From: Okamejei kenojei
Lineage: Eukaryota
Direction: 5' to 3'
Assembly: GCA_035221665.1 (NCBI GenBank)
Contig: CM069133.1
Span: forward strand, 7,502,001-7,566,000
DNA length: 64,000 nt
The translations under genes were made by a program, and so were the position numbers. The notes below the pieces were generated by a model. The model was given only the letters and a program-made list of their open reading frames with translations. It did not search any database and was not told the origin of the DNA. Positions 2,671 to 60,374 of the stretch are shown one piece after another; position 1 is the stretch's first letter, and the number at the start of each line of letters is the position of its first letter.

Positions 2671-3737
2671 TACTGGTTTGTAATTCCCCGTTTTTTCTCT
2701 CGCTCCTTTCTTAAAAAGTGGGATAACATTAGCTATCCTCCAATCCACAGGAACTGATCCTGAATCTATTGAACATTGGAAAATGATCACCAATGGAGTC
2801 CAACTATTTCTAGAGCCACCTCCCTGAGGACCCTGGGATGCAGACCATCAGGCCCAGGGGATTATCATCCTTCAGTCCCATTAGCCTGCCCAATATTATT
2901 TCTCGCCGAATGAAAATTTCTTTCAGTTCCTCTACCCCCTTAGATCCTCTGTCCTCTAGTACATCTGGGAGATTGTTTGTGTCTTCCTTAGTGAAGACAG
3001 ATCTGAAGTACCTATTCAACACTTCTGCCATTTCCTTGTTGCCCATAATTATTTCACCCGTGTCTGCCTTCAAGGGATCCACATTTGACTTTGCCACTCT
3101 TTCCCTTCCTAAAGAAGCTTTTACTGTCCTTTATATTCCTGGCCAGCTTCCCCTCGTACTTCATCTTTTTAGCCCGTTTTGTTTCCTTCTGTTGTCCTAT
3201 GAACGTTTCCCAATCCTCTGGCTTCTGGCTACTCTTTGCTGTGTTATACATCTTTTTTAGTTTTATTCTATCCCTAACTTCTCTTGTCGGCCACGGTTGC
3301 CTCCTACTCCCCTTAGAATCTTTCTTCCTTTTTGGAATGAAATGATCCTGCGTCTTCCGGATTATGCCCAGAAATGCCTGCCATTGCTTTTCCACCGTCA
3401 TTCCTGCTAGGATCCCTTTCCAGTCTACGTTGGCCAGCTCCCCTCTCATGCCTTCATAGTTCCCTTTGTTCAACTGCATCACTGCCACTTCCGATTTAAC
3501 CTTCTCCTTCTCAAATTGCAGATTATAACTAATCATATTATTATCATTACTTCCAAGCGGTTCCTTTACCTCGAGTTCTCTTATCATATCTGGTTCATTG
3601 GACAACACTAAATCCAGAATTGCCTTTTCTCTGGTCGGCTCCATTACAAGCTGCTCTAAGAATCCATCTCGGAGGCACTCTGCAAACACTCTTTCTTGGG
3701 GTCCTGAACCAACCTGATTTTCCCAGTCTACCTGCAT
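2671..3737 (-). mobile_element. CR1 LINE ORF2 fragment (endonuclease C-terminus and linker)
   Basis: ORFs 3054-3737 (FLEQLVMEPTREKAILDLVLSNE) and 2810-3097 (EMAEVLNRYFRSVFTKED) are typical CR1 ORF2. Confidence 0.9.
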
Positions 3738-4024
3738 ATTTTAAGGATAAGTCTTTTAGGACCAAGATGAGAAAATCATTTTTCACACAGAGAGTGGTGA
3801 ATCTGTGGAATTCTCTGCCACAGAAGGTAGTTGAGGCCATTGGCTATATTTAAGAGGGAGTTAGATGTGGCCCTTGTGGCTAAAGTGAACAGGGGGTATG
3901 GAGAGAAGGCAGGTACAGGATACTGAGTTGGATGATCAGCCATGATCATATTGAATGGCGGTGCAGGCTCGTAAGGCCGAATGGCCTACTCCTGCACCTA
4001 TTTTCTATGTTTCTATATTTCTAT
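3738..4024 (+). mobile_element. CR1 3' end inserted into the minus-strand CR1
   Basis: FFTQRVVNLWNSLP C-terminus, 3'UTR and (TTCTATGT)n tail. It interrupts the host GDFN|MQVDW motif, with ATATT on both sides. Confidence 0.85.
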
Positions 4025-4629
4025 ATTGAAATCCCCCTTCACCACAGTACCTTTGTTACATGCCAGTTTTAACTCCTGCTGCAACTTACACTCTACATCC
4101 AGGCTACTATTTGGGGGTTTGTAAATAACACCAATTAGTGTCTTCTTGCCTTTACAATTCCTCAACTCATCAGTCCCTATGTCTTCCCTCGCAAGGGACT
4201 GAATTCCATCCCTCACCAGCAGAGCTACCCCCCCTCCTCTGCCCACCTGCCTGTCCTTTCTATAGGATGTATAACGCTGAATATTAAGATCCTCCTGCAG
4301 CCACGTCTCAGTAATCCCCACAATGTCATATCTACCAACCTCTAACTGAGCCTCAAGCTCATCTACTTTACTTCTTAAACTTTGCGCATTCATATACAAT
4401 ACTTTTAATTCCTTACGCATCTCATCTTTCACATTGATCCCTATTACACATGGCCATACTCTCCTATCCCTTTGTGAGCTTCCTTTCCCGTTAATTCTGG
4501 GGTCATTAACCATCCCTTTACTCTCTTTCCCTGTAACTCCATCCTCGACTATCCCATTTGACACTCCACCCCCCTTATTCAGTTTAAACCCACCCGTGTA
4601 GCAGTGGCAAACCTGCCTGCCAGAATGCT
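4025..4629 (-). mobile_element. CR1 ORF2 N-terminal AP endonuclease (continuation of 2671-3737)
   Basis: ORF 4013-4657: LYMNAQSLRSK...IVGITETWL...RKDRQVGRGGGVAL...GDFN. Confidence 0.9.
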
Positions 4630-4738
4630 GGTTCACCTGCACCTCCTCCAACCTCATCTATTGCATCCGCTGCTCTAGGTGTCAGCTGCTGTACATCGGT
4701 GAGGCATGGCAATCGCTTTGCCCAACACCTCTGCTCAG
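4630..4738 (+). mobile_element. Penelope-like element GIY-YIG fragment, 5' half (split by Tx1)
   Basis: TCTSSNLIYCIRCSRCQLLYIGE; colinear with the uninterrupted copy at 38660-38790. Confidence 0.8.
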
Positions 4739-7700
4739 TTTTCTTTTCAAAATAGACTTTATTTAGGTAATAAATATATACTATTCATGAACCGTGCAAA
4801 AAAAATTCATCCGATATTTTTGGAGGCTCTAGAAATTGTTCAATACAGTCTACATACATTGCTCAAATTTCATGAATTTGTCCCCCATCCTTACCACTCA
4901 TGTGGCCCACTGCCATAGAATCCCTTCCCTTATTTTGAGGGGTGTCTCCACCACACCCTGCCCCCCATGTCCAGCAGCGGAAGGACCTTAGACTGTGGTC
5001 CTCCCCCACCGAGCCTTGGCGTTGGCTGCACCGAGCTTCAGTGCGTCCCTCAGCACGTACTCCTGCAGTCTGCAGCGGGCCAGTCGGCAACATTCCCTGA
5101 CGGACATCTCGCTCTGCTGGGTGGTGAACAATGATCGGGCAGACCAAAGAGCGTCTTTCACCGAGTTGATGACCTTCCAGCAGCACTCAATGTCAGTCTC
5201 TGAATGTGTCCCTGGGAACAGTCCGTAAATCACAGAGTCTGTGACGGAGCTGTTCAGAATAAACCGTGACAGGGACCCTTGCAGACCTCTCCAGACTCTC
5301 TTTGCGAATCCACACTCTGCAAAGAGGTGGGCAACCGTCTCCTCTCCAAAGCAGCCATCCCGAGGGCAGCGTGCTCTGGCAGTGAGGTTCCGACGGTGCA
5401 GGAAGGATCTAACTGGGAGGGCTCCCCTCACCGCCAGCCAAGCCAGGTCTTGGCACTTGTTGGTGAGTTCTGGCGATGAGGCATTTTGCCTTACAAGCTG
5501 GACAGTCTGCTCTGGGAACCACGTCACTGGATCCATGGAGTTCTTTCCATGCAGTGCCTGCAGGACGTTCCATGCTGACCACTGCCCGATTGACTTGTGA
5601 TCAAAGGTGTTCGTCTGGAAGAACCTTTCCACAAACGACAGATGGGGGCGGCAATGTCCAGTTGACTGACACATTGCGTGGCATCTGCTTCACAACACCG
5701 GGGACAGGTAGAACTTGGTGCCCACGTGCCTTGCCCCTACGCTCCGCCTGATGCATCCACACATGAAGGTGGCCATCAGGGTGAGGGCGACATTGGGCAC
5801 GCTTTTACCCCCTTTGTCTGCCGACTTGTGCATTGTGGCCCGTCGCACCCGGTCTATCCTCGACCCCCAGATGAACTGGAAGATGGCCCGGGTGATCCCT
5901 GTGGCATAGGAGGGAGGGACAGGCCACACTTGCACCAAGTACAGCAGCCCAAGAGCACCTCACACCTGATCTTTCCCCCTTATGGCGAGGGAGCGTTGCT
6001 TCCACAGCTCCAGCTTCTTCCCCACCTTGGCTATCCGCTCCAGCCAATTCTTGTCACATGCCTCAGCCCCCCCGAACCAGATCCCCAGCACCTTCAAGAA
6101 GTCAGGCTTGATGGTGAAGGGGATGGAAGATCAGTCGGGCCAGTTGCCAAAGCATGGCCTCGCTCTTCTTGCGGTTTACACTGGCTCCCGTGGCCGACTC
6201 CAACAGGTCGCAGATGCTGATCAATCTGCGGACCGACCCTGGATCCGAGCAGAAGACGGCGACATCGTCCATGTACAGGGAGGTTTGGACCTGACTGCCT
6301 GGCAATGTCACTCCTCTTATGCTCGCGTCCTTCCTGATGGACTCGACAAAAGGTCTCCTGATGGACTCAATACAACAGACGAGAGAGAAAGGGAGAAAGG
6401 ACTGACTCTAGACCTGACTCCAGACCTGACGGGGAAGCTGTCTGATTCCCACCCATTGGTTTGGACTGCATTACAGATATCGATGTAGAGCAGTATGATC
6501 CAATTTCTGATTCCCTCCCCAAACCCCACTTTGGAGAGCATGTCCCCCATGTACGTGTGCGAAATCCTGTCGAAGGCCTTTTCCTGGTCCAAGCTGACTA
6601 GACAGGCATCCACCCGTCTGTCCTGCATCGTAGGCGATGGTTATCTTCAGCAGCGCTAGGCTGTCTGAGATTTTCCTGCCAGGTACAGCACAGGTTTGGT
6701 CCGGGTGGATCACCCGTCCCAGGGCAGACTTGACCCGGTTGGCGATGGCCTTGGACAGGATCTTGTAATCGACATTCAACAATGTAATGCATCTGCAATT
6801 CCCCATTCTGCTTTGTAGATTAGGGTGATGCTGCCGTCCTTGAGTCTGACATGCTGCCAGCTAGAAGCATGTCGTTGTACACTTCCAGCAGGTCCATGCC
6901 CACCCTGTCCCACAGAGCCAAATACAACTCGGCCAGTAAGCCATCACTTCCAGGAGTTTTACTCAAGTCAAAGGAATGGATGGAGCCAGTCAGCTCCTCT
7001 AGGGTCAGTGGTTGGTCCAGACTCTTCCACCTGCTGTCCTCCAAGACCTCTGTGACAGGAAGTTCTGGGAGGCTGTGCTGTCTGTGGCCTTTCTGTCATA
7101 CAAATCCGTATAAAAGGATTTGCAGATCCTCAGCATATCCGTCTGCAAGGATGTTACCGAGCCTTCCTCCTCCCTAAGGCTGTTCATCACAGAGCTCCCC
7201 CTGTGATCCTTATGGAAAAAGAAGCGTGAGCACGTCTCCTCCTGCTCCACATGGCGGACCCTGGATCGGAAGATGATCTTGGAGGATTCAGAGGTAAAGT
7301 GCCGAGCTTGCTGGCCCTTCCACTCTACGTTCCTCCCTCACATCCACCCCGCTCGACTGCAGAAGGAGCAGTGGCTGCAAATCTGTCTGGAGTTGGCACA
7401 ATTCCCTCTGACTCTCTGAACCCCTTTAAATATGAAGAACTTCTTATTGTTCTCATTGGTTGCTTCCCATCAGTGTCGGGGAGTCAAAGAGGGGCTTCAC
7501 CGTTCTCCAACATGCGTAGTCCCTCTTTAGCTCCTCAACGTTCTCTGGGGTCAACTGTTTCACATTTAAACTTCCACGTCAGTGTGGGTGACAGGAGGCC
7601 TGAAGGAGGCAATGGTCAGAGACGAAGTGTGAGGGTCGGTGGGTCTGACCGTGACGGCCTTTGTCTGTTTCAGCGCTGCCGGATCGTCCAGCCGCATCAA

Positions 7701-7823
7701 TGATGCAGTTGAAAGTCACCGGCCAGACAGAATGAGCTGTTGGGACATGGCCAGCAGCGATGGGAGCTGCTGGAGAACGGCCAGCCACTCGCTCTGCACG
7801 GGTGAGGCATACACATTAATCAG

Positions 7824-7866
<43 letters not shown>

Positions 7867-9657
7867 AACCCGCCCCCCCCCCCCCCCCTCCCCCCCCCGG
7901 TTTTTTTTTGAAGAACCACGGTAACATAACATCCACGAGTCGACGCCCCCCAACACCCACCTGACCTCCGTGATGACGAAACTCCCTCCCCGCAGCAAGA
8001 TCCCCCCAGACTAGAAGCGTGACAGTCATTGCCTCCCGACCACACCGACAGCCCGTGGGGCCACCATCGTGACCACCTCCGATCAGCAGCGGAGGTGTGG
8101 CCGCCCGCACTCCTGCAGAAAAGTCACGTCCGCCTTGACCTTGGCCTGGTACTGCAAGGCGTTCACACATTGTGCTGTGTTCTTTATACTGATGCCAGTT
8201 TTAGCTCCATTGTCCATTAAAGTCACTGACCGGCATCTTGCCCCTCATGCCCACCGCTTTGGTGGATTGCAGCACCATACCAGGGCTTAGGTATTAGGTG
8301 CCAGCATCCTCAAGGAGGGGCGGTTCCCTCTGGCGTAACCGGCGTTGTTGTCGGGGGGGACCCTCCTTGTTCCGCCCCCTTCTGCGTGCACCGACCCGTC
8401 CATCTCCTACAGCTGGGGTACGCTGGCTGATTCACTGCTCCTGGTCTTCCGGAGCTGTAGCTGGGGCCCATTGGCCACTGCACTGCTTCCCGGTATTCCG
8501 GAGCCAGGGCCCATCCGCCGCTGCACTGCTCCTGGTATCCCGGAGCTGGGGCCCATCCGCCGCTGCACTGCTCCTGGTATCCCGGAGCTGGGGCCCATCC
8601 TCTGCCATTTTCCTCCTCTGCCTCCGTCATCGGGTCGTCAAGGTCGCCTTATCCTCCAACGAGGAGAGGTTGCTGGCATCTGTCTGGGGAAGAACTCTTT
8701 TTTTGGACTTACCCGTCCCTTCTGGCTTCGGCATTTTGGGCTGAACCCTCTGGTGTTTCTTCCTGTTCACTACGTGCCATTCCTCCTGCTGCTCCCCCTC
8801 TTCCATTGACTCTCCCCCCTGGACAGGGGGCTGGGGGTCTCTGTCCAGCACTTGGGGGCTCGAGGTGGTTGGCCTGTCCTTATCTCTGTTCTCCCTATCT
8901 GCTGGGGTCTTGGTGGGTGTCTCGCCCACCCTGAGGGTGCTGGCAGCAGCCCCTCTTGTCGCCTGTGCGTACGTGCAGGCCCTTCTAGGGCAGGCCCTGT
9001 AGAGATGGCCTGCCTCCCCCCCAACACAGGGTGCCAGTTCTTGCTGGCTTTGACACTCCTTTGTCTCGTGGCCCTCCAGCTTGCAGTTCTTGCTGACAAC
9101 TGCACTGCATTTGTTGTGCTGCCACATGCCCAGGTTTGTTGCATTTCCTGCACAACCTGGGTTTGCCCGCGTAGGTCATGTACCCTCGGTTCCCTCCGTT
9201 TAGCAAACACCAAGGGAGGGTGGATGATGTCTCCGTTCTTGTCCACCCTCAGCTTCAACTTCACTTGCTGCATGCTCGTCCAGATCCTGAACAGGTCCTT
9301 CACATCTACACAGTTCCCTGCTCCCCTCGACATAGCGAGGCAAGGAAGGTGATCATCCGTACCTTCTGGGTGGGGGTGAGGGGGATGCAAAGAGCGGCTG
9401 CACCTTCAGCAGCGACAGCGGGAACCTCGTTCACCTTCTCCCGGAAGTCTTGCATCAGCTTCTGCCATTCCGGTCGGACCCTGTAAAGTAACATCTAAAT
9501 TTCCGTTACCCGGGAAGTCCTGGAGGCAGAAGCTGTCCTTGGCCTCGAATTTGCAGGCCTCTAGCAACAAGACCTTCCTCATGAAGGGAGTCCCCTCGCT
9601 GAGTATTAACTTTTAACTGACTCTAAGAGTATTGTGGATACCCTCCCCTGCCAGGTA
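4739..9657 (-). mobile_element. Near full-length, frameshifted Tx1-clade (L1 group) LINE
   Basis: ORF1 remnants with CCHC knuckles (CRKCNKPGH, CKLEGHETKEC, GEAGHLYRAC; ~8220-9650). ORF2 remnants include EN (FLQECG), RT (KTPGSDGL, ITLLNVDYKILSK, LDQEKAFDRI, LYMDDV) and a C-terminal CPRDGC..ETVAHLFAEC. AATAAA plus an A-rich tail at ~4740-4765. Confidence 0.9.
8455..8600. repeat. 42-bp tandem repeat (~3.5 copies) in the Tx1 ORF1 region
   Basis: Unit GGAGCTGGGGCCCATCCGCCGCTGCACTGCTCCTGGTATCCC; reads APAPGYQEQCSGGW on the minus strand. Confidence 0.9.
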
Positions 9658-9838
9658 TAACCAACCAGTAGCTCAGCACTTCAACTCTCCCTCCCATTCT
9701 GAATCCAACCTTTCTGTCCTGGGCCTCCTTCATGGCCAGAGTGAGTCCCACCATAAATTGGAGGAGCAGCACCACATATTTTGCTTGAGTAGTTTACACC
9801 CCAGCAGTATGAACATCGACTTCTCCAATTTCAGATAG
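9658..9838 (+). mobile_element. Penelope-like element GIY-YIG C-terminal fragment, 3' half
   Basis: NQPVAQHFNSPSHS...KLEEQHHIFCLSSLHPSSMNIDFSNFR*; colinear with 38790-38980. Confidence 0.8.
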
Positions 9839-10770
9839 TAGCAATGTTACAAAATTTTTAGATTTTTAAAATCAAGTCTGCAATTTATCTCACCAGATAA
9901 AGCATAAAAAGAAGTTTAATTTAACACCTAATTCACTTTCATATCTTCAGTATTATAAAAGTTATGACCATTTTCATACTCGGAAATTAGCGTCTTGTTC
10001 CCTATTGCTTTTCCGTTGATTTAACACAAAAGCTGTGATCGAGGACAGTCAAAAGCCCATAACCATCTTAAAAATTAAGAGAACTGAATGAAATGTTCAG
10101 TTATTATAGGTTGAAGCATTCTGAAACAAATATAAAACATCTTACTTGGATGACCAGAAATTAAAGCATATAATTAGCTAGTTATCTAATTGTAGCTAAT
10201 TACAAAGTTGACCGTTGTGTCCAAATAGTAATAAACACCCAGACTGCCTTGAAAATTAAAAAATGTTATATTCTCAAGATCGGAACTTTAACATTATTGT
10301 ATTATATGCTGTAAGTCTGTAACATAGGTAAATAAATTACAATTTCTAGCAATAGACCATGCTGCAGCCAGCTCTCCTCCAAAAACGCAGCCATTTTTTT
10401 TCCCCGCTGGCGATTTTGGCTTATTTCGTTGCCGATTTTGCTGCCTCCACTCCTCCACTTCCTCCACTCCGCCCCCCCCCCCGGCCCGGCTCGGCTCGGC
10501 TTTATCACGCTGACTCAAGCCAAAGATCGCCTCATCCACGGCTGCTTTTCACCGTGTTCTGAAATACAGCGGGGGAACAGCCGATCTTTCCCCTGAGCCA
10601 GAGGGAAGGCAGGGACAACTTCCAATCCATCAGCAGGGTCGCTCTGTTAATGGATTCATTCCACAGTGAGTTCAGTTCGCTAACAACCCCCCCCCTCCCC
10701 CCCTCCCCCACGTACTTGGGGACTGAAGCACGTTCGGGGACCAGACCCAACGGGTCTGCACCTGGTCTAG
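9839..10770 (+). mobile_element. Non-autonomous Helitron-like element
   Basis: 3' hairpin CAGACCC-AAC-GGGTCTG (10742-10758), then 8 nt, then a CTAG terminus (10767-10770) followed by T. No TIR or TSD. The 5' boundary is approximate. Confidence 0.6.
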
Positions 10771-10782
10771 TATACTTTTAAA

Positions 10783-10784
<2 letters not shown>

Positions 10785-10841
<57 letters not shown>
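10785..10841. repeat. (TG)n microsatellite
   Basis: Pure TG run. Confidence 0.98.
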
Positions 10842-10842
<1 letters not shown>

Positions 10843-11599
10843 ATTTTGCCTTTGAGACGTATTTTCTCGAAAACCAGATGCAAATACGCTGAGATTTTTA
10901 CATATTTCAGTAGTGATTTAACTTATGATTTCAGAAATTGACTCTAATTTGATCAATTATTTCCTCAATTTTTAATAAAGTTGTTCACAAAACGGACTGT
11001 TTTTAAAAAATCAAACTGCTGTGGCAGCTGCGGATGTCACAATGCCCTTGATCACGGCACGCCCCACCTTCTCCTGCCCTCTATTAAAGCGGATGTTTCT
11101 CAAAGAGCAGGCGCACTTTCCACCATCCTTCCGCCCCCCCCCCCCCCCCCCCCCCCCCCCACCCACTCAGTCATTTTTTCGCCTCCCGCTGTGCTGAAGA
11201 TCCTGAGGGAGTAATGGCCGCCAGGACCACTTTCTCATCGCCTGCCCCGCGCAACGATAATGGCTGCTGCCTCCCAGCTCTCCTCCACATCCCCCCCCCA
11301 CCCGGCCCAGCTCTGTCACGCTGGCGGAAGCGATGATCGGCTGGACCCATGCTGCTTTTCACCATCCTCAGATCGCTCCGTGCCTTGCTCATGGTCCGCA
11401 GGCTCACTCGGGACTACGCTAGCCCACCCACACCACCCTCCCTCCCCTCCCCATACTCGGGGTCTGAAGCATTTGGGAATCGGTCCTTTGTGACGACCCG
11501 GAGATGACCGGCTGGCTCCGGGAGGACAGAGAGGATGCGCCGGAGATGCGAGGCCAAGGAACTGAGGCTGACTGAGGCCGATGGTTGCTGGGTGGCCCA

Positions 11600-12335
11600 G
11601 GCCCTCTCCTCCCTCCCTCCCTTCTGCCCCATCCCTTCTCCCCCTCCCTTCTCCCCCTTCCCCTCTCCACCCTCCCCCCACTCTCCCCTCCCCTCCCACC
11701 ACCTCCCACCTCTCCCCCACCCCCTCTACCCTCCCCCTCCCCTCGCTCCCCCTCCCCTCTCTGCCCCTCTCTCTCCCCCTATCTCCCTCCCTCCCTTTCT
11801 CTCCCTCCCTCTCTCCCCCTCCCTCTCTCCCCCTCTCTCTCCCAGCCTCTCTCTCTCTCTCTCTCTCTCCTCTTCCTCTCCCCCTCTCTCTCCCCCACCC
11901 TCCTGTCCTCCCTCCCCTACACCCCCTACACCTCTCCACCCCTCCCCTAACCCCCTTCCCCCCTCTCAGCCCCCCTCTCTCTCCTCCCCTCTCTCCTCCC
12001 ATCTCTCTCTCCCCCACCCCCCTCTCCTCCTCCCCTCCACCCCTCTCCCTCTGTCTCTTGCCCCTTCTGTCTCTGCCCCTCTGTCTGTCTCTCCCCGTTC
12101 TCTCTCTGCCCTCACTCTCATACCCCCCTGACTCTGAGGCCAATGGCTGTTGTGTGGCCCTAGCCCTCTCCTACCTCCCTCCCTTCTGCCCCCATCCCTT
12201 CTCCCCACTCCTTTCACCCCCATCCCTTCTCCCCACTTCTTCTCCCCCTCCCCCCCTCCCCCCCCTCCCCCCCCCCTCCCCCCCTCCCCCCCCCCCCCTC
12301 TCCCCCCCTCCCTCCCCCTCCCCCCTCCCCCTCTG
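11600..12335. repeat. Polypyrimidine (C/T) low-complexity tract
   Basis: Almost exclusively C/T, with a duplicated GAGGCC.ATGG.TG.TG.GTGGCCC motif at ~11573 and ~12136. Confidence 0.9.
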
Positions 12336-12344
12336 GAGTGAGAG

Positions 12345-13594
12345 GGGCAAGAATTCCAGATACTACCTTGGTAAGGCCATCAAAAAGGCCAAAAGGGACT
12401 TCTGCTCCAAACTGGAGGATGAAACAGATGTTCGGCAGCTGTGGCGGGGCCTGAATGCAATCACTTCAGTCTCAGTCACAGAGGCTGACGTCAGGAAATC
12501 CTTCAGAGGGGTGAACCCTCGAAAAGCGCCTGGACCTGATGGTATACACGGTCGTGTTCTAAAAACCTGTACGGTCCAACTGGCTGGAGTGTTTACGGAC
12601 ATTTTCAACCTCTCACTTCTAAGGTCTGAGGTCCCCACCTGCTTTAAAAGGGCATCAATTATACCAGTGCCCAAGATCAGTAAGGTGACGTGCCTCAATG
12701 ACTATCGACCTGTGGCACTAATGCCTGTGGTGATGAAGTGCTTTGAGAGGTTGATCATGGAGCTAATCAACTCCTACCATGACAAAAACCTGGGCCCACT
12801 GCAGTTCGCTTACTGCAACAGATCAACGGTGGATGCGATCTCGCTGGCTCTCCACTCCACTCTGGACCACTTGGACAACAAAAACTCATTATGTCCAGGC
12901 TGTTATTCATCGATTACAGCTCGGCATTTTAAAACAATCATCCCCCTCCCAGCTGGTTACCAAACTCGCAGAACTGGGTCTTTGCACATCCCTCTGCAAT
13001 TGGATCCTCGACATTACAGAGAGTCGGTTTGTCAAGGAGGATTCTCTCTAACTTCTACAGGTGCACAGTAGAGAGCTTGCTGACCATGCATCGTGGCGTG
13101 GTTCGGCAAATTGAGCGCCCTGGAGAGGAAAATACTTCAAAAAGCAGTAAATACTGCTGTAGATGATATGTGTGTACATCATCGGCTCTGACCTTCCTTC
13201 CATCGAGGGGATTTATCGCAGTTGCTGCCTCAAAAAGGCTGGCAGCATCATCAAGGACCCACACCATCCTGGCCACACACTCATCTCCCTGCTACCTTCA
13301 GGTAGAAGGTGCAGGAGCCTGAAGACTGCAACGACCAGGTTCAGGAAAAGCTACTTCCCCACAGCCGTCAGGCTATTAAACCTGGCTCTGACAAAACTCT
13401 AATCATTAATAACCAATTATCTGTTATTTGCACTTCATCAGTTTATTTATTCATGTGTGTATGTATTTATATAATGATATATGGACATACTGATCGGTTT
13501 TGTAGTAAATGCCTACTGTGTTCTGTGTGCTGAAGCAAAGCAAGTATTTCATTATCCTATCAGTGACACATGACTATAAACTCACTTGAACTTG
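12345..13594 (+). mobile_element. Rex1/Babar-like LINE fragment (RT with internal deletions and 3' end)
   Basis: [53 protein letters not shown]; C-terminal IIKDPHHPGHTLISLLPSGRR; tail ending CTTGAACTTG. Confidence 0.85.
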
Positions 13595-13876
13595 TGGGCC
13601 AGCAGATGTCTGTAGAGGCCGATCCGCAATCCCCACACCTTGGTGCAACGTGGGCAGTGGAGACTGGTGGTGGTTCGTAGTCATCGAGTTCCCTTCTCTC
13701 TCTTCTTACCGTGCTGTCGCTTTGTCTCTGCGACACAGCATAGTTCCATTTCGTGAGGTGCAGCTCCTTCCTGCACGGATTTCCTTCAGGAGTGCCTGCC
13801 CAGTGCAATGTGCTCCCAGTTGCTTGATGTGATGTGAAATTTCGTCAGACTGTTCTTGACGTTGTCCTTTGGACTG

Positions 13877-13954
<78 letters not shown>

Positions 13955-14478
13955 GGGGGTTGGGGGTTCGCTGACCTTCCTTCAATTGAGAGTACAGGAT
14001 TTGTCTAGGGAGACATGCGGATGACATGGCCAGTCCAGCTGCATTATTGTGGTGGTGATGCTGGTCATGTTGGCTTCCTCCAAAACCCTGATGTTGGTGC
14101 GTTTGTCCTCCCAGCTGATTTCAGAATATTTCGTAAGGATCTTTGATGGTATTGTTCCAGGGCTCTCAGGTGCCTGCTGTAGGTGGTCCAAGACTTGGCT
14201 CCATACAACAGGGTGGAGAGGACAACGGCTCTGTCGACCAGCAGTTTTGTTAAGGCCTTTAGGTCTTGGTCTTCATAGACCTTTTCCCAAGTCTGGCGTA
14301 GGCTCCGTTGGGCACAACTCAGGCAATGGTTGACCTCAGAGTCGATGTCAGCTTTTGAGGAAAGAATGCTGCCAAGGTAGGGGAAATGGTCAACATTTCC
14401 AAATGTGGCGTTGTCCACTATCTCTAAACTGGCTTCCAGTGTCTCAATTGACACAGTACATGGCCACAACAGGCCCCC
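13595..14478 (-). mobile_element. RTE (BovB-like) LINE 3' fragment
   Basis: FPYLGSILSS..LLYGAKSWTTYSRHLRALEQYHQRSLRNIL..ISWEDKRTNIRVLE..LPRQILYSQLKEGQR; interrupted by a poly-G run at 13877-13953. Confidence 0.85.
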
Positions 14479-16650
14479 TTAAATCTATTTGGCAAGACAT
14501 TCTTGCCATAGAGGGGGTACAGAGAAGGTTCACCAGACAGATTCCTGGGATGTCAGGACTTTCATATGAGGAAAGACTGGATAGACTTGGCTTGTACTCG
14601 CTAGAATTTAGAAGATTGAAAATAGGTGCAGGAGTAGGCCATTTGGCCCTTCAAATCTGCACCACCATTCAATATGATCATGGGCTGAACATCCAACCAG
14701 TATCCTGTACCTGCCTTCTCTCCATACCCCCTGATTCCTTTAGCCACAAGGGCCACATCTAACTCCCTCTTAAATATAGCCAATGAACTGGCCTCAACTA
14801 CCTTCTGTGGCAGAGAATTCTCTGTGTGAAAAAATAATGGTTCTTCATCTCGGTCCTAAAAGACCCTTATCCTTAAACTGTGACCCCACCCCTTGTTTGG
14901 ACTTCACTTCCCCAACATCAGGAACAATCTTCCTGCATCTAGCCTGTCCAACCCATTAAGAATTTTGTATGTCTCTATAAGATCCCCCTCAATCTTCTAA
15001 ATTCTAGCGAGTTCAAGCCGAGTCTATCCAATCCTTTCTTCATATGGAAGTCCTCCTGCCATCCCAGGAATCAGGTCTGGTGAACCTTCTCTGTACTCTA
15101 GTAACTCCCGTCTCTGGCAAGAATGTCTTTCCTCAGATTAGGAGACCAAAACTGTATGCAATACTCAGGTGTGACCTCACCAAGACCCTGTACAACTGCA
15201 CATATTATACTCAAAATCCTTATTGCTATGAATGCTAACCCATACCATTCGCTTTCTTCACTGCCTCGCTGCGTGACATGGCACCTAAGTAGCAGGAGAG
15301 GGGGTGAAAGATAGATCCTCCTGAAGCTCGTTCTTTTCATTAGCCTTTTCATTTTTGAGTAGTAAGGATTAAAGCAAATTGCGTTAAGTAAGTGGGAGAG
15401 TGACTAGTATGTTTTTTGTAATGGAGCATTGCATGGCTCGCATTCATGAAACGCAGTTAGTAGGCATAAGCAATTAGGAAGGCAAACAGAATATTACGGT
15501 TTATTGAGAAGGGATGGTAGAGTATTACACATATAGAAGAGTATTGCTTCAACTGTGCGAGTTCTTCTTCTTCCTCATATGACATTAAATACAAACATTT
15601 AAACTGAAGATTAATTCATGGAAGGTTTACTGTTCATTTGTGTGGTGAAGGGCTGTCTTATAAGGAATCATGAAGAAATAGATTGAGTCTCATATTCATT
15701 AGAGTTTAGATGAATCGAGATGGGATCTTACTGAGATTTCTGAGGGAACACTTTGCAATGTAAATACATAGAAACATAGAAATATAGAAATAGGTGCAGG
15801 AATAGGCCATTCGGCCCTTCGAGCCTGCACCCCCAATCAATATGATCATGGCTGATCATCCAACTCAGTATCCCGTACTGCATCTTCTCTCCATACACCC
15901 CTGATACCTTTGCCACAAGGGCCACATCTAACTCCCCTCTTACAATATAGCCAATGAACTGGCCTCAACTACCTTCTGAGTGACAGAAAAACCAGGACTC
16001 ACACTCTCGACTGTTCGGATGTTGCTTTCCATGAGAAAGTGTTGTTGAACTTGTTTAGTCGTCCAATGTAGATGGAATCCTTCAGATCTTTGGAATTGTT
16101 TGTCTTGAGTGTAAGATATGAAAGTAAGCATGCAGTACAACAGCAGTGAAGAATGCAAATGGCATGTGGCCTTTATAACAAAATGAATCAAATTATAGGA
16201 GCAAAGAGGTCCTTCTGCAATTGTACAGAGCCCTAGTGAGACCACACCTGGAGTATTGTGTGCAGTTTTGGTCCCCTAATTTGAGGAAGGACGATTCTTG
16301 CTATTGAGGTTTCTCTTAGTGCAGCGTAGGTTTACTAAGGTTAAATTCCTGGGATGGCGGGACTGTCATATGCTGAGAGAATGGAGCAGCTGGGCTTGTA
16401 CAGAGTTTAGAAGGATGAGAGGGTATCTCATTGAAACATATAAGATTGTTAAGGGCTTGGACACACGCTAGAGGCAGGAAACATGTTCCCGATGTTGAGT
16501 CCAGAACCAGGGGGCCACATTTTAAGAATAAGAGTAAGCCATTTAGAACGGAGACGAGGTGGAGGGGAGGAAACACTTTTTTCACACAGAGAGTGGTGAG
16601 TCTGTGGAATTCTCTGCCTCAGAGGGCGGTGGAGGCAGGTTCTCTGGATG
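14479..16650. mobile_element. Cluster of CR1 fragments in both orientations
   Basis: DILAIEGVQRRFTR..LGLYSLEFRR (+, 14479-14617); CR1 3' ends on - (14618-15270, 15767-15985); + strand RT C-terminus at 16110-16650. Confidence 0.85.
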
Positions 16651-47207: not shown

Positions 47208-48149
47208 ATGGTTATTGTATTATGTCTTGTAGAGTGTTATTCTTGTAATGTATTATAGCGTGTGATAGTATTATAATGTTATAGTGTAGTGTACTGTGTA
47301 GTTTACTGCAATGTGCTAATATATTACGTTAGTGTTATGTTGTATTATTACTGCATTATAGTATTATAATGTGATAGATTATTATTGTGTATTATATGGT
47401 ATTATAGTTACAGGGTTTTGTAGTGCATTATAGTGCGTTAGTGTTATAGTGTGTCATACTTTATTATAATGCATTTTATAGCGTATGTTTTTATAATAAA
47501 TGTTATAGCGCATTGTAGTGCATTGTAGTGTCTTTAAGTGTTATATTGTGTATTGTTTGTTTATGGCATTATTCTATGATATACGTATTTTATACATTTC
47601 ATTATATAGTAAGATACAGTGTGCATTATAGTGTTATTTTGCATTATATAGTATATATTGTGTTATATATATTATATATATTGCGTTAATCATTGTTTTA
47701 GTGTATTATAGTCTGTTATAGTGTAATACTGTAGTGTATTTATAATGTGATAGCGTGTTCGTGTATTATAGTATTAATAGTGCGTTATACTGTTATATGT
47801 ATCATAATTTTACATATATAATATTATACTATTATAATGTTATATTGTAATGTGTCATAATATTAGTATGTGTGTTATCGTATTGTATTATAGTATTAGT
47901 GTGTCTTATTATGTATTATAATGTTATAGTTAGTATTAGTACAATGAGTTTGTAGTGCATTATAATGAATTTTATATTGTGTTAGTATTATATATCATAA
48001 GTATTATAGTATTAGTGCATAATAGTGTTTTATAGTTTATTATAGTGTATCTTTTTAAATAGTTCAATTACTATATCCATCTATATATACATATATATAT
48101 ATCTTTAACGATCTATCTGTATATTTATCTTTCTCTATATCTCGATATC

Positions 48150-51100
48150 TATCATCTCCAGCTGCATCTCCAGCTGCTCTCCAGCTCTTGCTCCATCTCC
48201 AGCTCTATCTCAAACTCTTACTCCAATCAGCTCCATCTCCAGGTCCAACCAGCTCTAGCTCCATCTTCTACTCGATTAGCTCTATATCTCTAGCCCCATC
48301 TGTCTATGTGTCTCTCTCCCTCTCCCTCCCTCTCTCCCCTCTCTCCCCCCTCTCTCCCTCTCTCCCTCGAACATAAAAATAACATGCCTTAACACAATAT
48401 AAAACCTCTCCATCTCAAGCTCTGGTTCCATCTCCATCTCCAGGTATAGCTCCAACTCTAGCTCTATCTCTAGCTCCATCTTCAGTTCCATCTCCAGTTC
48501 CATCTCCATCTCCATCTCCACGTCCAGTTGTATCACCAAATCTAGCTCTAGCTCCAGGTCCAGCTCCACCTCCATCTTAAGCTCCATCTCCATCTCCAGT
48601 TCCATTTCCAGCTCCAGGTACCTCCGGCTCCATCTCCACCTCCGGCCCCATCTCCACCTCCTGCTCCAACTCCACCTCCGGCTCCATCTCCACCTCCGGC
48701 CCCATCTCCACCTCCTGCTCCAACTCCATCTTCAGCTCCAGCTCCAGATCCACCACCACCTCCAGCTCCACCTCCATCAGCAGCTCTAGCTCCATATTCA
48801 GCTCCAGCTCCAGATCCACCACCACCTCCAGCTCTAGCTCCAGTTCCATCTCCAGCTGCAGCTCCAGCTCCATCTTCATCTCCATTTCTAGCTCGATCTC
48901 CAGCTCTAGTATCTCCAGCTCCATCAACAGCTCTAGCCCCAGCTTAATCTCCAGCTAAATCTCCCGGTCTAACTCTAGCTCCATCTCCAGCTGCATCTCA
49001 AACTCTAGCTCCATATCCTGCTCCATTTCCTGTTCCAGCTACAGCTGCAGCTATATCTCCAGCTACAGCTGCATCTCCATCTCCTGTTCTATCTCCATCT
49101 CCAGTTACATTCCAGCTCCATTATTCCATCTCCAGCTCCATCTCCATCTCTAGCTCCACCTCCACCTCCACCTCCACCTCCATCTGCAGTTCCAGCTCCA
49201 TCTGCAGCTCCATCTCCAGCTCTATCTCTAGGTCCATCCCCACCTCCATATTCAGCTCTAGCTCAAGCTTCAGCTCCATCTCCAGCTCCATCTCCAGGTC
49301 CCTCCGGCACCATCTCCAGCTCGATCTTCAACTCTACCTGCATCTCCAGCTCCATCTCCAGCTTCTGCTCTAACTCCATCACCAGTTCCATCTCCAGCTT
49401 TATCTCTAGCTCCATCCCCAGCTCCATATTCAGCTCTAGCTCAAGCTGCAGCTCCATTTCCAGCTCCATCTCCAGGTCCCTCCGGTGCCATCTCCAGCTC
49501 CACATTCAGCTCTAGCTCAAGCTCCAGCTCCATCTCCAGCTCCATCTTCATCTGCAGCTCTAGCTCCATCTGCAGCTCCAGCTCCATCTCAATCTCTAGT
49601 GAAAACTACCTCCAGCTCCAGCTCCGCCTCCATCTCCAGCTCCAGCTCTAGCCTCAACTCCATCTTCAAATCTAGCTCTAGCACTAGGTCCATCCCCAGC
49701 CCTCGAGCTCCACCTCCAGCTGTAGATCTAGCTCCATCTCCAGCACCAGCTCGAGTTCCATCTGCAGCTCAATCTGCAGCTCAATCTCCAGCTCTATCTC
49801 CATCTAACGCTCTAGTTCTACCTCAATCTCCAGCCCTCTCCAGCTCTAGCTAAATCTCCATTCCCAGCACCAGCTCCATCTCCAACATTAGCTCCAGCTC
49901 CATCTTTAGCTCCACCTCCAGCTCAATTCCAGCTCCAGCTCTATTTCCAGCTGCAGCGACAGCTCCATCTCCATCTCTAGACCCAGCTCCATCTCCAGCC
50001 CTAGCTGTACCTCCATCACCAGCTCCATCTCCAGTGCTATCACCAGGTCCAGCTCCATCTCCATTTCTAGCTCTAGTTTCATCTTCAGTTCCAAATCAAA
50101 CTCCATCTCAATCGCCAGCTCTAGCTCCATCTCAAGCTTCTCCGGTTCCAGCTCTTATCTCTAGCTCTATCTTCAAATCCCTCCAGCCCTACTTTAAATC
50201 CACCTTCTCCACCTCGCTCCATCCCCAGCTCTAGCTAAAGCTCTATTTCCAGTGCCAGTGCCAGCCCCAGCTCTAGCTCCATCTCCTGCTCTAGTTTCAG
50301 CTCCAGCTCCAACTCTATCTCTAGCTCTACCTCCAGCTCCGTCTCCAGCTCTAGCTCCATTTCCATCTCAATTTCCAGCTCTAGCTCCATCTCCAGCTAT
50401 ATCTCCAGCTAGTGGGAGCTGGAGCGACAGCTGGAGATGATACATATCAAGATAGATATCCTGTACGAGTGCTATCTCCATCTAAAGCTCTAGTTCTAGC
50501 TCCAGCTCCAGCTGCATCTCTATCTCCTACTCTATTTCTAGCTCCATCTCTAGCTGTAGCTCCATCTCCAGCTCCAGCTCTAACTCCATATCCAGCTCCA
50601 TTTCCAGCTCTATTTCCAGCTCCATCTACAACTCCATCTCCAACTCTAGCACATGCTCCATTTCCAGCTCAAGCTATAGCACCATCTCCAGCTTAATCAT
50701 CAGCTCTAGCTCTAGCTCCGGCTCCAGCATCAGCTCTAGCTCCATCTCCAGCTCATTCTCCAGATATCTGCAGCTTCTGCTTGTTCAAGCTCTAGTTCCA
50801 TCTACATCTACATCTCCACCTCTATCTCCAGCTCTAGCTTTAGCTTCATCTCCAGCTCCATCTCCAGCGGTAGCTCCAGCTGAATCTCCAGCTCTATCTG
50901 CAGCACCAGCTCCAATTTCAGCTCCATCTCCATCTTCAGCTCCAATTCCAGCTCAAGCTCCATCTCCATCTCCATCTCCATCTCCATCTCCAGCACCATC
51001 TGCAGCTCCATCTCTAGCTCCAGTTCCATATCCAGCTCTCGCTCAAGCTCCATCTTCAGCTCCCTCCCCCAGCTCTAGCTCTACTCATTCAGCTCAGTCT

Positions 51101-53070
51101 CCAGCTCCTCCAGCACTAACACTATTTCCAGCGCCATCTCCAGCTCCAGTTCCATATCCAGCTCCCGCTCGAGCTCCACCTTCAGCTCCAGCACTAGCTC
51201 CATCTCCATCTCAATTGCCAGCTCCAGCTCTAGCTCCATATCAAGCTCCCTCCAGCTCCAGCTCCAGCACCAGCTCTATCTCAATCTCCAGCTCACTCCA
51301 GCTCTAGGTTAACTCCATCTCCAGCTCTAGTTCGGGCTCCCTCCAACTCCATCTCCAGCTGCAGCTCCAGCTCTACCTCCATCTCCAGCTCAATCTCCAG
51401 CTCTAACTCTAGCTCTATCTCCAGCTCCATCTTCAGCTCTAGCTCCAGCTCCAGCTCTAGCTCTACCTCCAGCTCTGTCTCCAGCTCCATCTCCAGCTCC
51501 ATTTCCAGCTCCATTTCCAGCTCCATTTGCAGCTCTAGCTCCAAATCCAGCTTTAGCTCTTGCTCCGTCTCCAGCTGTACAAGCTAGAGAAACATCTCCA
51601 GCTGTACAAGCTAGAGCACGATCTCCACCTCCATCTCCAGCTCCATTTCCAGCTCTAACTAGCTCTATCTCTAACTCCAGCAGCAACTCAAGCTGTAACT
51701 CTAACTCAAGCTTCAGCTCAAGCTCCATCTCCAGCTGCATCTCCAACTAGCTCCCGCTCCATCTCCAGCTCTAGCTCCATCTCCTGCTCCATTTCCTGCT
51801 CCAGGCCCAGCTGCAGCTGTATCTCCTGTTCTAGCTGCATCTCCTGTTCTATTTCCATCTCCAGTTCCAACTCCAGCTCCATCTCCAGCACCATCTCGTT
51901 CTCCTGCTCCTGCTCCAGCTCCGGCTCTAGCTCCATCACAAGCTCCATCTTCAGCTCTAGCTCTATTCCCAGCTCCATATTCAGCTATAGCTCAAACTGC
52001 AGCTCCATCTACGGCTCTACCTCCACCTCTAGCTACAGCTCTAGCTCCATCTCCAGCTCCACTTCCACCTCCATCTGCAGCTCCAGCTCCATCTCAATCT
52101 TCAGTTAACACTGCATTTTCAGCTCCAGCTCCGTCTCCATCTCCAGCTCCAGCTCTAGCTCTAGCCTCAGCTCCACCTCCAAATCTAGCTCGAGCTCTCG
52201 CATTAGGTCCATCCCCAGCTCCATCGAACTGCACCTCCAGCTGTAGATTTAGCTCCATCTGCAACTCAATCTCCAGCTCCATCTCCAGCTCCAGCCGTAG
52301 CTCCTTCACCAGCTCTAGCTGTAGACGTAGCTCCATATCCAGCTCTAGCTCTATCTCCTTCTCCGTCTAAAGCTCCAGTTCTACATCCATCTCCAGCTCC
52401 ATCTCCAGCTCTAGCTAAACCTCCATTCCCAGCTCCAGCTCTAGCTCCATCTCCAACACTAGCTCCAGCTCCTTCTTTAGCTCCATCTCTAACTCCAGCT
52501 CTATTTCAGCTCTAACTCGACATGGAGCTAGAGCTGGAGATGGAGATGGAACTCGAGATGGAGCTGGAACTGGAGCTAGAGTTGGAGGAAGAGCTGCTGA
52601 TGGAGATGGACCTGGAGCTGGAGATGGGGCTGTAGCTGAAAATTGAACTACAGCTAGAGCTAGAGGTGGAGCTAGAGTTGGAGATATAGCTGGAGATGGA
52701 GATGGAGCTAGACCTTAAGATGGGGATGGCACAGGAGCTGGAGTCGGTGCTGGACTTGCTGGAGATGGAGCTAGTACTGGAGATGGTGAAGTTTATATGG
52801 GGTGTTATGAGCTGTTATTATTATATAATACTGGAGAGAGCTCTAGGCAGAGATAGAGCTCGAGATAGATAGAACGCGATATAGAGATAGATATAGAGAT
52901 ATAGAAATAGATAGAGAGAGATAGAGATAGAGATATACAAAGTGATTCAAAGAGAGAGAGATATAGATAGATGGGGCTATTGATAGAGAGAGATAATGGA
53001 GTAGAAGATGGAGCTAGAGCTGGAGGTGGAGGGAGCAAGAGCTAGTGGGAACTGGAGCTACAGCTTGAGA
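48150..53070. repeat. AGCT-rich hexamer satellite block 2
   Basis: C-rich on + until ~52520, then G-rich; small inverted patch at 50411-50470. Confidence 0.95.
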
Positions 53071-56000: not shown

Positions 56001-58090
56001 TATTATTATATAGTACGTTATAATGTTAAAGTGTGTTTTTGTGTGATAGACTACATTAGTGTGTTATATTGTTTAGAGTGTGTTATGGTGTGTTATAAAC
56101 ACAGTTTAACACTTAATAACACAATACACAATAATACATTATAACACAATAACACACTATAACACTGGGATACATAACAATGCACTACAACATTGTACAC
56201 ATTGCAATATACTATAAAAGCACTATAATACATTACACCACTAAAATACACTATAACGCAATATAACACATTTTAACCGAATAACACACTATAAAACACT
56301 TTTAACACACTATAATACACCGTAACATACCATAACCCAGTCTAAACAGCACAATGACAATATAACAATATAATGCACTTTAGCACTTTCATACACTGCC
56401 ACACCCTGTAATACACCATAATAATATAATGCACTAAGGCACACTATAATACACAATTATGTTTATGATACTATACTATCCTATACACTGTGATGATACA
56501 CTATTATAAACATCTCACTGTACTAAATTACGCATAAATACAGGAAAATACAATATAACACATGATACACAATAACACGCTATAATACACTGTAACACAT
56601 TATAACGCACAAAACTAACAATAACACACTATAGTTAACTATATGGTATTTTATACTGTTTTATAGTATGTTACATTGTCTTATAGTGTTATAGTGTTAC
56701 AGCAGATTCTAGTGTGTTATAATGTATTATCGTACGATATCGTATTATAGTTAGTCTGGTGTGGTGTGATTGTGTGTTATCCGGTATTATAGAGGTACTA
56801 TGTGCTATATGTATTATATCGTGTTGTATATTATATAGTTTATAGCATTATATCCTACTACAATACCATATAAAACGATACTAACTTATGACACACAATA
56901 CAAAACTCTAATTTACTATTAAACAATATAATACACCATTATACATTAAAAACATTATAACATTAACATTATCACATTCAAAATATAAACACATATAAAA
57001 CATGACACATTATCACTATAATACATTCTAATATATTACATTATAAAATACTATAATACACTATAACACACTATACACACTACAACACGCTATATTATAA
57101 TCTCAGTGTAATTTACTATAACACATAACACACTATAATACATTATAATGTCTAGCACAATATAACAATATACTGTACCAAATTATATAACACTATCACA
57201 CGTTATAATAGAATTTAACACATAATCGCAATCTTTCATACACAATAATACATTATAACACTTTAACACACTATAGCACACTAAATACACTATAACAATC
57301 AGATACTTAATAATGCACTACGACATATAGCTATAACACCTTATGAAATACCGTATAATACAGCATAACTGCAATGCACCATAACATTTATAACTATAAC
57401 AATTTCAATATACTATAATAGTATTATGCACTATAACGCTATATAACACATCGCAACACCCTAATACGCACTATAATACACTATAACACAATATAACTAT
57501 ATAACACTATATAACACTTTCACACTTTCATTCACTGTAACACACTATAACAATACAATAATACATTTTTGCACATATCACACTAGAATCTGCTATAACT
57601 ATATTGCAATGAAACACACTATGAATCAGTATGACACTATATAGTGTTAGTGTTAGTGTGTTATGGTTTATTATAGTTTGTTATTGTATATTTGAGTGTA
57701 TTATTTTAGTGTGTAATAGTGTGTTATTCTATTATAGACAGTATTTTTATAATGTGTTACATATTATAATATGTTGTGTTCTATTGTTGTGTATTAATGT
57801 GTGATATAGTGTATTATAGCGTGTTATTGTGTATCATAAGTGTTATCGTGTATAATACAATAAAAGTAATTTTGTACTATAGCTGGTCTTAGTGTTATAT
57901 TGTAAAGTGTTATAGTGTATTATAGTATTAGTATGTTATAGTATTATGTATTATAATGTATAATATAATGTGTTAGTATATTATAAACTATATTATAATG
58001 TGTTAAAGGATTATAGTTTTTTTTGTACGTAGTAGTGTAACATAGTTATTATGGATATAGTTATCTCTCGCTCAATCTCTATCTCCAACC
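53071..58090. repeat. AT-rich block, copy 2
   Basis: 53946-58085 is colinear with 40660-46565 minus the insertions; 53071-53910 is the reverse complement of 47335-48150. Confidence 0.9.
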
Positions 58091-58098
58091 ATCTGTCT

Positions 58099-59608
58099 CA
58101 TAGAACCATAGAAACATAGCAAATAGGTGCAGGAGGAGGCCATTCGGCCCTTCGAGCCAGAACCGCCATTCATTGTGATCAAGGCTGATTGTCCCCTATC
58201 AATAACCCGTGCCTGCCTTCTCCCCATATCCCTTGACTTCACTAGCCCATAGAGCTCTATCCAACTCTCTCTTAATCCAGTGATTTGGCCTCCACTGCCC
58301 TGTGGCAGGGAATTCCATAAATTCACAGCTCTCTGGGTGAAAAAGTTTTTTCTCACCTCAGTCTTAAATTACCTCCCCTTTATTCTAAGACTGTGGCCCC
58401 TGGTTCTGGTCTCGCCCAACATTGAGAACATTTTCCTGCATCTAGCTTGTCCAGGTCTTTTATAATTTTATATGTTTCTATAAGATCCCCCGTCATCCTT
58501 CTAAACGCCAGTGAATACAAGCCTAGTCTTTTCAATCTTTCCTCATATGACAGTCCCGCCATCCCAGCGATCAATCTCGCGAACCTACGCTGCACTGCCT
58601 CAATCACAAGGATGTCCTTCCTTAAATTAGGAGAGCAAAACTGTACACAATACACCAGATGTGGTATCACCAGAGCCCTATACAACTGCAGAAGAACCTA
58701 TGCTCCTATACTGAAATCCTCTTGTTGTGAAGGCCAACATTCCATTAGCTTTCTTCACTGCCTGCTGTACCTGCACGCCAACTTTCAGTGACCGGTGTAC
58801 AAGGACACCAGGTCTCGCTGTACCTCCCCCTTACCTAATCTAACCCCATTGAGATAATAATCTGCCCCCTTGTTTTTGCCGCCGAAGTGGATAACCTCAC
58901 ATTTATCTATATTATACTGCATCTGCCATGCATCTGCCCACTCACTCAACCTGTCCAGGTCACCCTGCAACCTCCTAACATCCTCTTCACAGTTCACACT
59001 GCCACCCAGCTTTGTGTCATCTGCAAACTTGCTAGTGTTGCTCCTAATTCCCTCTTCCAAATCATTAATATATATAACAGTTGCGGCCCCAACACCGAGC
59101 CTTACGACACTCCACTCGCCACTGCCTGCCATTCTGAAAAGGACTCGTTCACTCCTACTCTTTGCTTCTGGTCTGCCAACCAATTTTCTATCCATGTCAC
59201 CACCCTACCCCCAATACCATGTGCTCTAATTTTAGTCACCAGTCTCCTGTGCAGGACCTTATCAAAGGCTTTCCGAAAGTCTAGATACACCACATCCATT
59301 TTACTTGTCACATCCTCAAAAAATTCCAGGAGATTAGTCAAGCATGATTTCCGTTTCATAAATCCATGTTGACGGACTAATCCTTTTACTGCTATCCAAA
59401 TGCCCCATTATTACCTCTTTAATAATTGACTCCAGCATCTTTCCCACCACCGGTCAGGCTAACTGGTCTGTAATTCCACGTTTTCTCTCTCGCTCCTTTC
59501 TTGAAAAGTGAGATAACATTAGCTATCCTCCAATCCACAGGAACTGATCCTGAATATATTGAACATTGGAAAATAATCACCAATGTGTCCACAATTTCTA
59601 GAGCCAGT
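58099..59608 (-). mobile_element. CR1 LINE (RT and 3' end)
   Basis: SCLTNLLEFFE, YLDFRKAFDKV, SKFADDTKLGG, YCVQFCSPNLRKD; CATAGAAAC tail at 58099. Confidence 0.92.
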
Positions 59609-59638
59609 TTCTCTACAACCTTAGAAACAGAAACATAC

Positions 59639-60010
59639 TAGCTCTAGTTCCAGGTCCGGCTCCACTAGCTCAAGCTCCATCTTCAGCTCCATCTCCAGCA
59701 TTGTCTACAGCACCATCTCCATTTCTAGCTCTATCTCCAGCTCCAGCTCAGGCTCCATCTCCAACAGTATCTCCAGCTCCATCTCTAGTATAACAGTTAT
59801 AAAACAATAAACTATCATAACACACCATAATAGACGACACTGTGACTATTTTAGGTATGGAGCTATATAGTGTCGTCTACTGGTCTGTAATTCCCCGTTT
59901 TCTCTCTCGCTCCTTTCTTGAAAAGTGGGATAACATTAGCTATCCTCCAATCCACAGGAACTGTTCCTGAATCTATTGAACATTGGAAAATGATCACTAA
60001 TGCGTCCACT
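59639..60010. repeat. Duplicated satellite/linker/CR1 junction (paralogue of ~2420-2805)
   Basis: Shared ATAACAGTTATAAAACAATAAACTATCATAAC...TAGGTATGGAGCTATATAGTGTCGTCTACTGG followed by the same CR1 breakpoint. Confidence 0.9.
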
Positions 60011-60374
60011 GTTATAGGTATAATTTTATATCTTATGATATAGTGTTATACTGTATTAGAAAGCATTATATTGTAATGTTATAATCTAGTATGTGTGTTA
60101 TCGTATTATGTATTATAGTATCAGTGTGTTATCTTATTATGTATTATAATGTTAATGTTTAGTATTATAGTGTTTAATGTTTATAGTGCATTATAATGTA
60201 TTATATTGTTAGTTTTACAGTATATTATAAGTTGATATAGTATTATAGTATTAGTGCATAGTGTATCATTTTCCATAGTTCAATCACTATATCTATCCAT
60301 CTATATATATCTTTAACAATCTTTAACATATCTATATATGTATCTCTTTCTCTATCTCTATATCTATCTTGATA

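Follow-up and report, generated by a model that had tools for sequence, protein, structure and literature searches.

Keno retrotransposons insert in U2 snRNA genes at nt ~37 and have been described as U2-specific, and the part of PMC6136364 consulted gives a motif in their 3' flank. The crocodilian Tx1-Mar elements (Tx1-2_Crp, Tx1-2B_Crp, Tx1-4_AMi and Tx1-11_Crp) and SINEU bear U1 and U2 snRNA sequences at their 5' ends, here called heads. The sections of PMC4494074 that describe them, as far as consulted, favour template switching, report no insertion into a U1 gene, and leave open both how snRNA-headed SINEs and LINEs without an internal promoter are transcribed and how heads are added repeatedly; the same sections cite R2 as depending on transcription of its target gene. 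As of 2015, the elements listed as targeting snRNA genes in the available portion of PMC4640811 were only Keno and Utopia (U2 genes) and Dada (U1 and U6 genes). In these sources, snRNA-headed Tx1 elements and U2 targeting are already published. The copy described here is a fossil from a family that resembles Keno and Tx1-Mar and whose targeting of snRNA genes is broadened and probably position-based.

The window, by which we mean the whole 64-kb stretch of DNA analysed, contains a broken two-ORF LINE on the minus strand (4741-9657), lying inside Penelope-like GIY-YIG sequence of a 2.76-Gb vertebrate genome (Table 1). The host was called Penelope-like from its motif translation and from a weak GIY-YIG Pfam match obtained at an intact sister site only (E 0.005, below cut-off). 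In Pfam searches of young copies and of the window fragments, the family ORF1 encodes ZCCHC3-like RNA-binding domains and zinc knuckles, and ORF2 encodes an AP endonuclease, a reverse transcriptase (RT) and a zf-RVT domain. The ORF1 zinc knuckles, the AP endonuclease, RT and C-terminal zinc domain of ORF2, the A tail and the target duplications are Tx1-clade traits, the class being assigned from domains and structure. An RT homolog search returned unnamed RT proteins; of the homologs with a name, horn shark proteins showed the highest identity (52-64%, across part of the query), which makes a cartilaginous fish the probable source. Elsewhere in the window, strongly skewed low-complexity or tandem tracts occupy 1-2800, 11300-12400, 48000-53000 and 58000-64000, and pieces of other LINE-like ORFs lie at 2800-4650 and 12300-14500.

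Table 1 Features of the LINE copy and its host site, in window coordinates
Feature	Position	Strand	Basis or remark
U1 snRNA nt 6-20, putative stump of the family U1 head	9643..9657	-	U1 genes of the genome and relatives
Deletion joint	9641..9644	-	249 nt gone relative to L079; AG microhomology of 2 nt
ORF1 remnant, broken	8260..9642	-	low end approximate, estimated by mapping
ORF2 remnant, broken	4988..8100	-	high end approximate
3' UTR and short A tail	4741..4987	-	
C-terminal GIY-YIG portion of the Penelope-like host, flanking the LINE 5' end	9658..9838	+	
N-terminal GIY-YIG portion of the Penelope-like host, flanking the LINE 3' end; recurrent family insertion site	4623..4740	+	
Weak PSE look-alike in the host, possible landing cue	9728..9744	-	100 nt before the nick in an intact sister site

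The earlier note on this DNA had read the 5' terminus of the element as an exact copy of U1 nt 6-20, abutting the host directly and with no U1 remainder in the 3' flank. Each of these points was confirmed: the reverse complement of the 15-mer is identical to nt 6-20 of U1 genes in the same genome, Penelope-like sequence adjoins at 9658, and host sequence restarts at 4740, past the tail. The register of the match is ambiguous, as the 15-mer can also be read as U1 nt 1-4 joined to 9-20. By chance, any U1 15-mer is expected ~0.018 times within the 64-kb window, and a word from U1 1-56 no more than 20 nt from the junction ~8e-7 times. An Rfam scan of the window gave 0 matches. Alignment with L079, a relative at the identical host site, revealed that the 249 absent nt comprise U1 21-56, the 5' UTR, the ATG and the first 10 ORF1 codons; the window copy joins U1 nt 20 directly to ORF1 codon 11. 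In the family, ORF1 begins MAAATGEGVQGIRNTLRV, and its start lies 30 nt upstream of the base at which the window copy picks up again. By sequence comparison, then, the 15-mer is read as a deletion remnant of the U1 head carried by full-length family copies, and not as a native leader. With one mismatch allowed, the deletion joint has two matches genome-wide, one in the window and one in a local duplicate 82 kb downstream (G000:C3:7581000-7595900 versus window 4831-11640, 92-98% identical, also given as 95-97%), which contains the junction. A subfamily with a short 15-nt leader was ruled out, because both occurrences of the joint trace to this one duplication.

Compared with three relatives, the window copy has 13 further deletions of at least 8 nt. 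Its insertion retains no target-site duplication and ~5 host bases are lost; sister copies at this site have duplications of 13-25 nt. The window copy is an old, dead, off-target daughter. The exact pattern of the Penelope site has 43 matches genome-wide, and 8/40 old and 4-5/29 young family copies reside there. We rejected the idea that the Penelope flank is part of the element, as truncated and full copies of both ages occupy the site with their own duplications.

Full-length relatives begin with U1 1-56 and/or U2 1-~50, followed by a ~220-nt UTR and the ATG. We examined 28 relatives chosen by ORF1 5' similarity (30 loci obtained from 42 matches, minus the window copy and its duplicate). A U1/U2-derived head on an autonomous element, the Tx1-Mar trait, was present in 24 of the 28, with U1 included in 16 and U2 alone in 8; in the other 4 the truncation lies below the head. 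Stacking of heads is frequent, with U1 placed over U2, and the UTR contains constant internal pieces, U2 37-52 and U1 37-57. The end points of the heads vary (U1 25, 32 and 45-56), with microhomologies and partial repeats in L011, L018, L132 and L214-216, and the maximum reach is U1 57 and U2 54. The joint between a U2 1-47 head and the UTR is identical in seven loci (L026, L029, L139, L141, L143, L165 and L268). Some heads match particular U1 gene variants, that of L268 the gene at L155 and those of L214-216 and L220 the gene at L132. In L075/77, L078, L083, L084 and L268 the target duplications enclose the heads, indicating that the head travelled with the element. Furthermore, among copies picked by 3' similarity, a head match of at least 11 nt was found in 0/38 and 0/39 truncated copies (0/77 in all) and in 3/3 full-length ones; this census leaves out 11 loci whose 5' end lies beyond the retrieved stretch and 11 duplicates. 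The U4 head word was absent from the loci obtained before the U4 pattern search, and Rfam on 39 dispersed loci found a U6atac piece alone, distant from the junction.

The head of L018/L089 (G000:C16:31.57 Mb) consists of U1 9-25, ~30 nt of the Penelope target site and U2 12-44, which suggests either that a copy lying at the Penelope site acted as source or that a template switch occurred. L218 (G000:C18:19626129-19626492) joins U1 1-56 and 17 nt of UTR to no more than the 3'-terminal ~270 nt, and is thereby internally deleted in the manner of SINEU; a SINEU-like family founded on it was unsupported, as no second such copy appeared among the 40 scored of 3141 candidates. L219 (C28:30328439) is a retrocopy of U1 2-156 that derives from a variant gene and has an A-rich tail behind it.

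A scan of U1, U2 and U4 genes showed that family copies reside in snRNA genes themselves. Exact patterns of element tail followed by snRNA numbered 28 for U1 and 22 for U2, and 0 in reversed controls. After the tail, U1 resumes at nt 32-43 and U2 at nt 33-38, and the junctions continue into the 3' flank of the gene in 24/27 (U1) and 19/20 (U2) cases. Among 18 U4 matches there were two distinct insertions, before nt 33 and nt 37. The family therefore inserts into real U1, U2 and U4 genes at one offset, ~32-43 nt inside. The U1 set has at least 12 different 5' truncation points, and some of its copies are amplified single insertions. At one of the 27 U1-junction loci, L132, a promoter and the U1 5' part are joined directly to the element: an intact U1 promoter and U1 1-55 precede a complete element that carries U1 and U2 heads of its own and ends in a tail, and U1 41-164 follows. 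As assembled, no ORF in the L132 copy reaches 250 aa. The equivalent loci in U2 genes are L165 and L100. Some of the copies found behind an intact promoter are flanked by target duplications. Three dispersed copies carry snRNA sequence at their 3' ends: L114, at the Penelope site, ends in U1 40-164 and an A tail; L137 ends in U1 35-164 and 24 nt of flank, within a ~31-nt duplication; and L091 ends in U2 38-153 and an A tail. These 3' transduced parts indicate that gene-resident copies were sources, copied through RNA.

Most family copies are nonetheless off-target, and specificity is weak. U1 genes hold 2/29 young copies (one amplified insertion) and 0/39 old relatives, and U2 genes hold 0/29 young copies (one lies inside the U2 head of another copy) and 0/39 old relatives. 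Several snRNA clusters are heavily invaded (G000:C37:15.2-20.5 Mb; C33:11.5-11.8 Mb; C30:30.0-35.0 Mb). That on C37 has at least 18 interrupted U2 junctions versus at least 6 top-scoring intact genes, and C30 contains tandem arrays of element plus U1 remainder. At L136 and L158, insertions into U1 genes, the PSE and the U1 5' part are removed up to about -68. L093 (C21:199.6 kb) and L157 (C593:44.2 kb) start with upstream promoter sequence of U1 type, continue with a short piece of LINE 3' end and then read U2 35-191 with U2 flank; each is either a U1/U2 gene hybrid or one of a class of U2 genes whose upstream region resembles that of U1. Eight near-identical U4 4-80 fragments on unplaced contigs (L289-L293, L295, L297, L302) are probably one amplified 3'-truncated retrocopy.

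A tree of 61 rows, built from the 3' 750 nt, has a young clade (14 rows, support 100/99) in which copies from U1 genes, U2 genes and dispersed sites are mixed. Young family copies are 98-99% alike. The window copy belongs to an older clade (22 rows, 97/94), and every one of the 6 full-length copies in that clade includes a U1 head. One tip, L088, is a nested young copy whose head label is wrong, and L138 is a rearranged outlier.

We consider it likely that the 15-mer is a U1 head cut down by deletion, from a family that enters U1, U2 and U4 genes 32-43 nt in and owes its heads to transcription from their promoters. From the anatomy of the DNA we infer this transcription as follows. A copy resident in an snRNA gene would be transcribed from +1, and its RNA would begin with the first ~45-57 nt of the gene, a stretch reaching to the distal edge of the target duplication. 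The transcript would carry the head because snRNA promoters lie externally, as described in the consulted sections of PMC4494074. Daughter copies would take the head to other sites, and landing in another snRNA gene would stack a new head over the old one, as in U1 over U2. The earlier note had offered a U1-gene-targeting family with a U1 leader as one of two origins. This option is largely borne out, as copies do lie in U1 genes and dispersed full-length copies are U1-headed within their target duplications; it needs correcting in that the family has U2 and U4 genes among its targets as well, with most of its sites outside snRNA genes, and in that the 15-mer is the apparent stump of a ~56-nt head.

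It is rather unlikely, though by no means far-fetched, that heads arise by template jumping, in which the RT, on reaching the 5' end of a full-length element RNA, jumps to U1 or U2 snRNA or to a nascent 5' piece; insertion into snRNA genes would then be a separate trait, and the window copy still a deleted headed copy. The variable head ends, short homologies and partial duplications are what Kojima's template-switch model predicts, the consulted part of PMC4494074 proposes such switching for SINEU, and the composite head of L018, with U1 and U2 pieces on either side of Penelope sequence, fits as well. A jump at the RNA 5' end would likewise spare truncated copies. Against it, the heads never extend past the far edge of the duplication in gene-resident copies, identical joints between head and UTR recur across many copies, and the 3' transductions show that gene-resident copies are transcribed sources. 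The other origin offered in the earlier note, a U1/Tx1 template-switch chimera, is weakened by the census, since such chimeras would join snRNA pieces to 5'-truncated copies at varied points and none of the 77 has one. We regard as improbable a one-off chimera at this junction alone, in which a cDNA ending early at ORF1 codon 11 would have switched, while integrating, to U1 RNA or to the head present on its own RNA. The joint is unique but for its local duplicate, and L218 offers a comparable isolated case of a U1 head with an internal deletion; yet the window copy has its 13 other deletions and has also lost its target duplication, and the full-length members of its clade are U1-headed. Lastly, the earlier note's caveat that the match is coincidence or the start of ORF1 has next to no probability: the 15 nt are short and run in frame into ORF1, but relatives place a UTR and ATG before a different ORF1 N-terminus and contain these 15 nt as part of longer U1 heads, and the chance expectation at the junction is ~8e-7.

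The family resembles Keno in being an AP-endonuclease LINE with a U2 site at nt ~37 (here U2 resumes at nt 33-38) and in the same 3' flank motif, as given in the parts of the Keno literature consulted; it differs in that one young clade has U1 and U4 genes among its targets as well, at an unchanged offset, and in that most copies lie off-target. Measured against the >20% of flanks that counts as specificity in the consulted part of PMC4494074, the family falls short at U2 genes, which hold 0/29 young and 0/39 old copies. With Tx1-Mar and SINEU, as described there, it shares a Keno-related Tx1 affiliation, U1/U2 heads, recurrent head stacking and a fixed site in another transposon. Tx1-Mar prefers Mariner-N4 (Mariner-N4_AMi), whereas the recurrent host here, by which we judged this preference, is a Penelope-like element; and, unlike in those sections of PMC4494074, promoter-linked source-type copies exist. 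The likeness to R2, as cited in the same source, would be dependence on target-gene transcription, and that to Utopia (PMC4640811, available portion) is the frequent loss of the target 5' part and weak specificity. These two, however, use a restriction-like endonuclease and one target gene, in contrast to the AP endonuclease and several unrelated targets here. Dada-U1 also inserts in U1 genes but is, in the consulted part of PMC8869645, a DNA transposon with an unrelated mechanism. In the open literature, surveyed mostly by title and the start of the abstract and excluding Repbase, we found neither a LINE insertion into U1 or U4 genes nor targeting by distance from a PSE. The presence of a young family in three unrelated snRNA genes at one offset makes the questions of transcription and head addition testable, and the single offset points to position-based targeting in a vertebrate LINE.

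Across U1, U2 and U4 genes the cut offset is common to all, with no common sequence at the cut. At 41 dispersed sites, with target duplications of 7-33 nt, no common sequence was found at the cut except an A-tail artefact at -1. PSE-like sequence upstream was scored at 31 of these sites, 10 having been dropped (6 Penelope, 3 tandem or element-internal, 1 repeated instance of a CR1-like site), in an interval (-106..-96) that was fixed after 20 of the 31 had already been inspected. The score was above all 5000 random-window draws for two models, a matrix from genes of the same genome and a vertebrate consensus; for the 11 later sites the same models gave 19 and 4 of 5000 draws. The excess was significant in 3/4 models with all 31 sites and in 2/4 with the later 11; it was not significant on the opposite strand, with a U1-only matrix (549 of 5000) or, at the later 11 sites, with a matrix lacking the C33-type site (1080 of 5000). 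The best PSE-like match fell inside the interval at 7/31 sites versus 1.9 expected, and the look-alikes are weak. In one intact Penelope site, the best-scoring PSE-like word of 175 upstream positions lies at -100, with a low score. In genes whose PSE seems to lie 5 nt further upstream, the cut is not shifted.

Whether the family picks its sites by how far they lie from the snRNA transcription complex bound at the PSE, and not by the cut sequence, we judge to be evenly poised; such a choice would also explain the Penelope hot spot. Ty3, Ty1 and the Dictyostelium TRE elements insert at a fixed distance from a promoter-bound complex, with Pol III factors at tRNA genes. The present family would resemble them in position-specific insertion and differ in its anchor, which here would be the snRNA PSE complex. 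The full proposal, that the LINE homes on the PSE-bound complex, cuts ~95-100 nt past a PSE or look-alike and lives on borrowed U1, U2 and U4 promoters, is more tentative still. If true, the stacked snRNA heads are a record of past hosts, and the PSE rule would account for the U2 site of Keno, for the hot spots that Tx1-Mar has in another transposon and for the transcription of SINEU. As a separate observation, L251, L255 and L078 share a second recurrent target, a repeat labelled CR1-like from the appearance of its motifs, with a PSE-like word 92-102 nt upstream.
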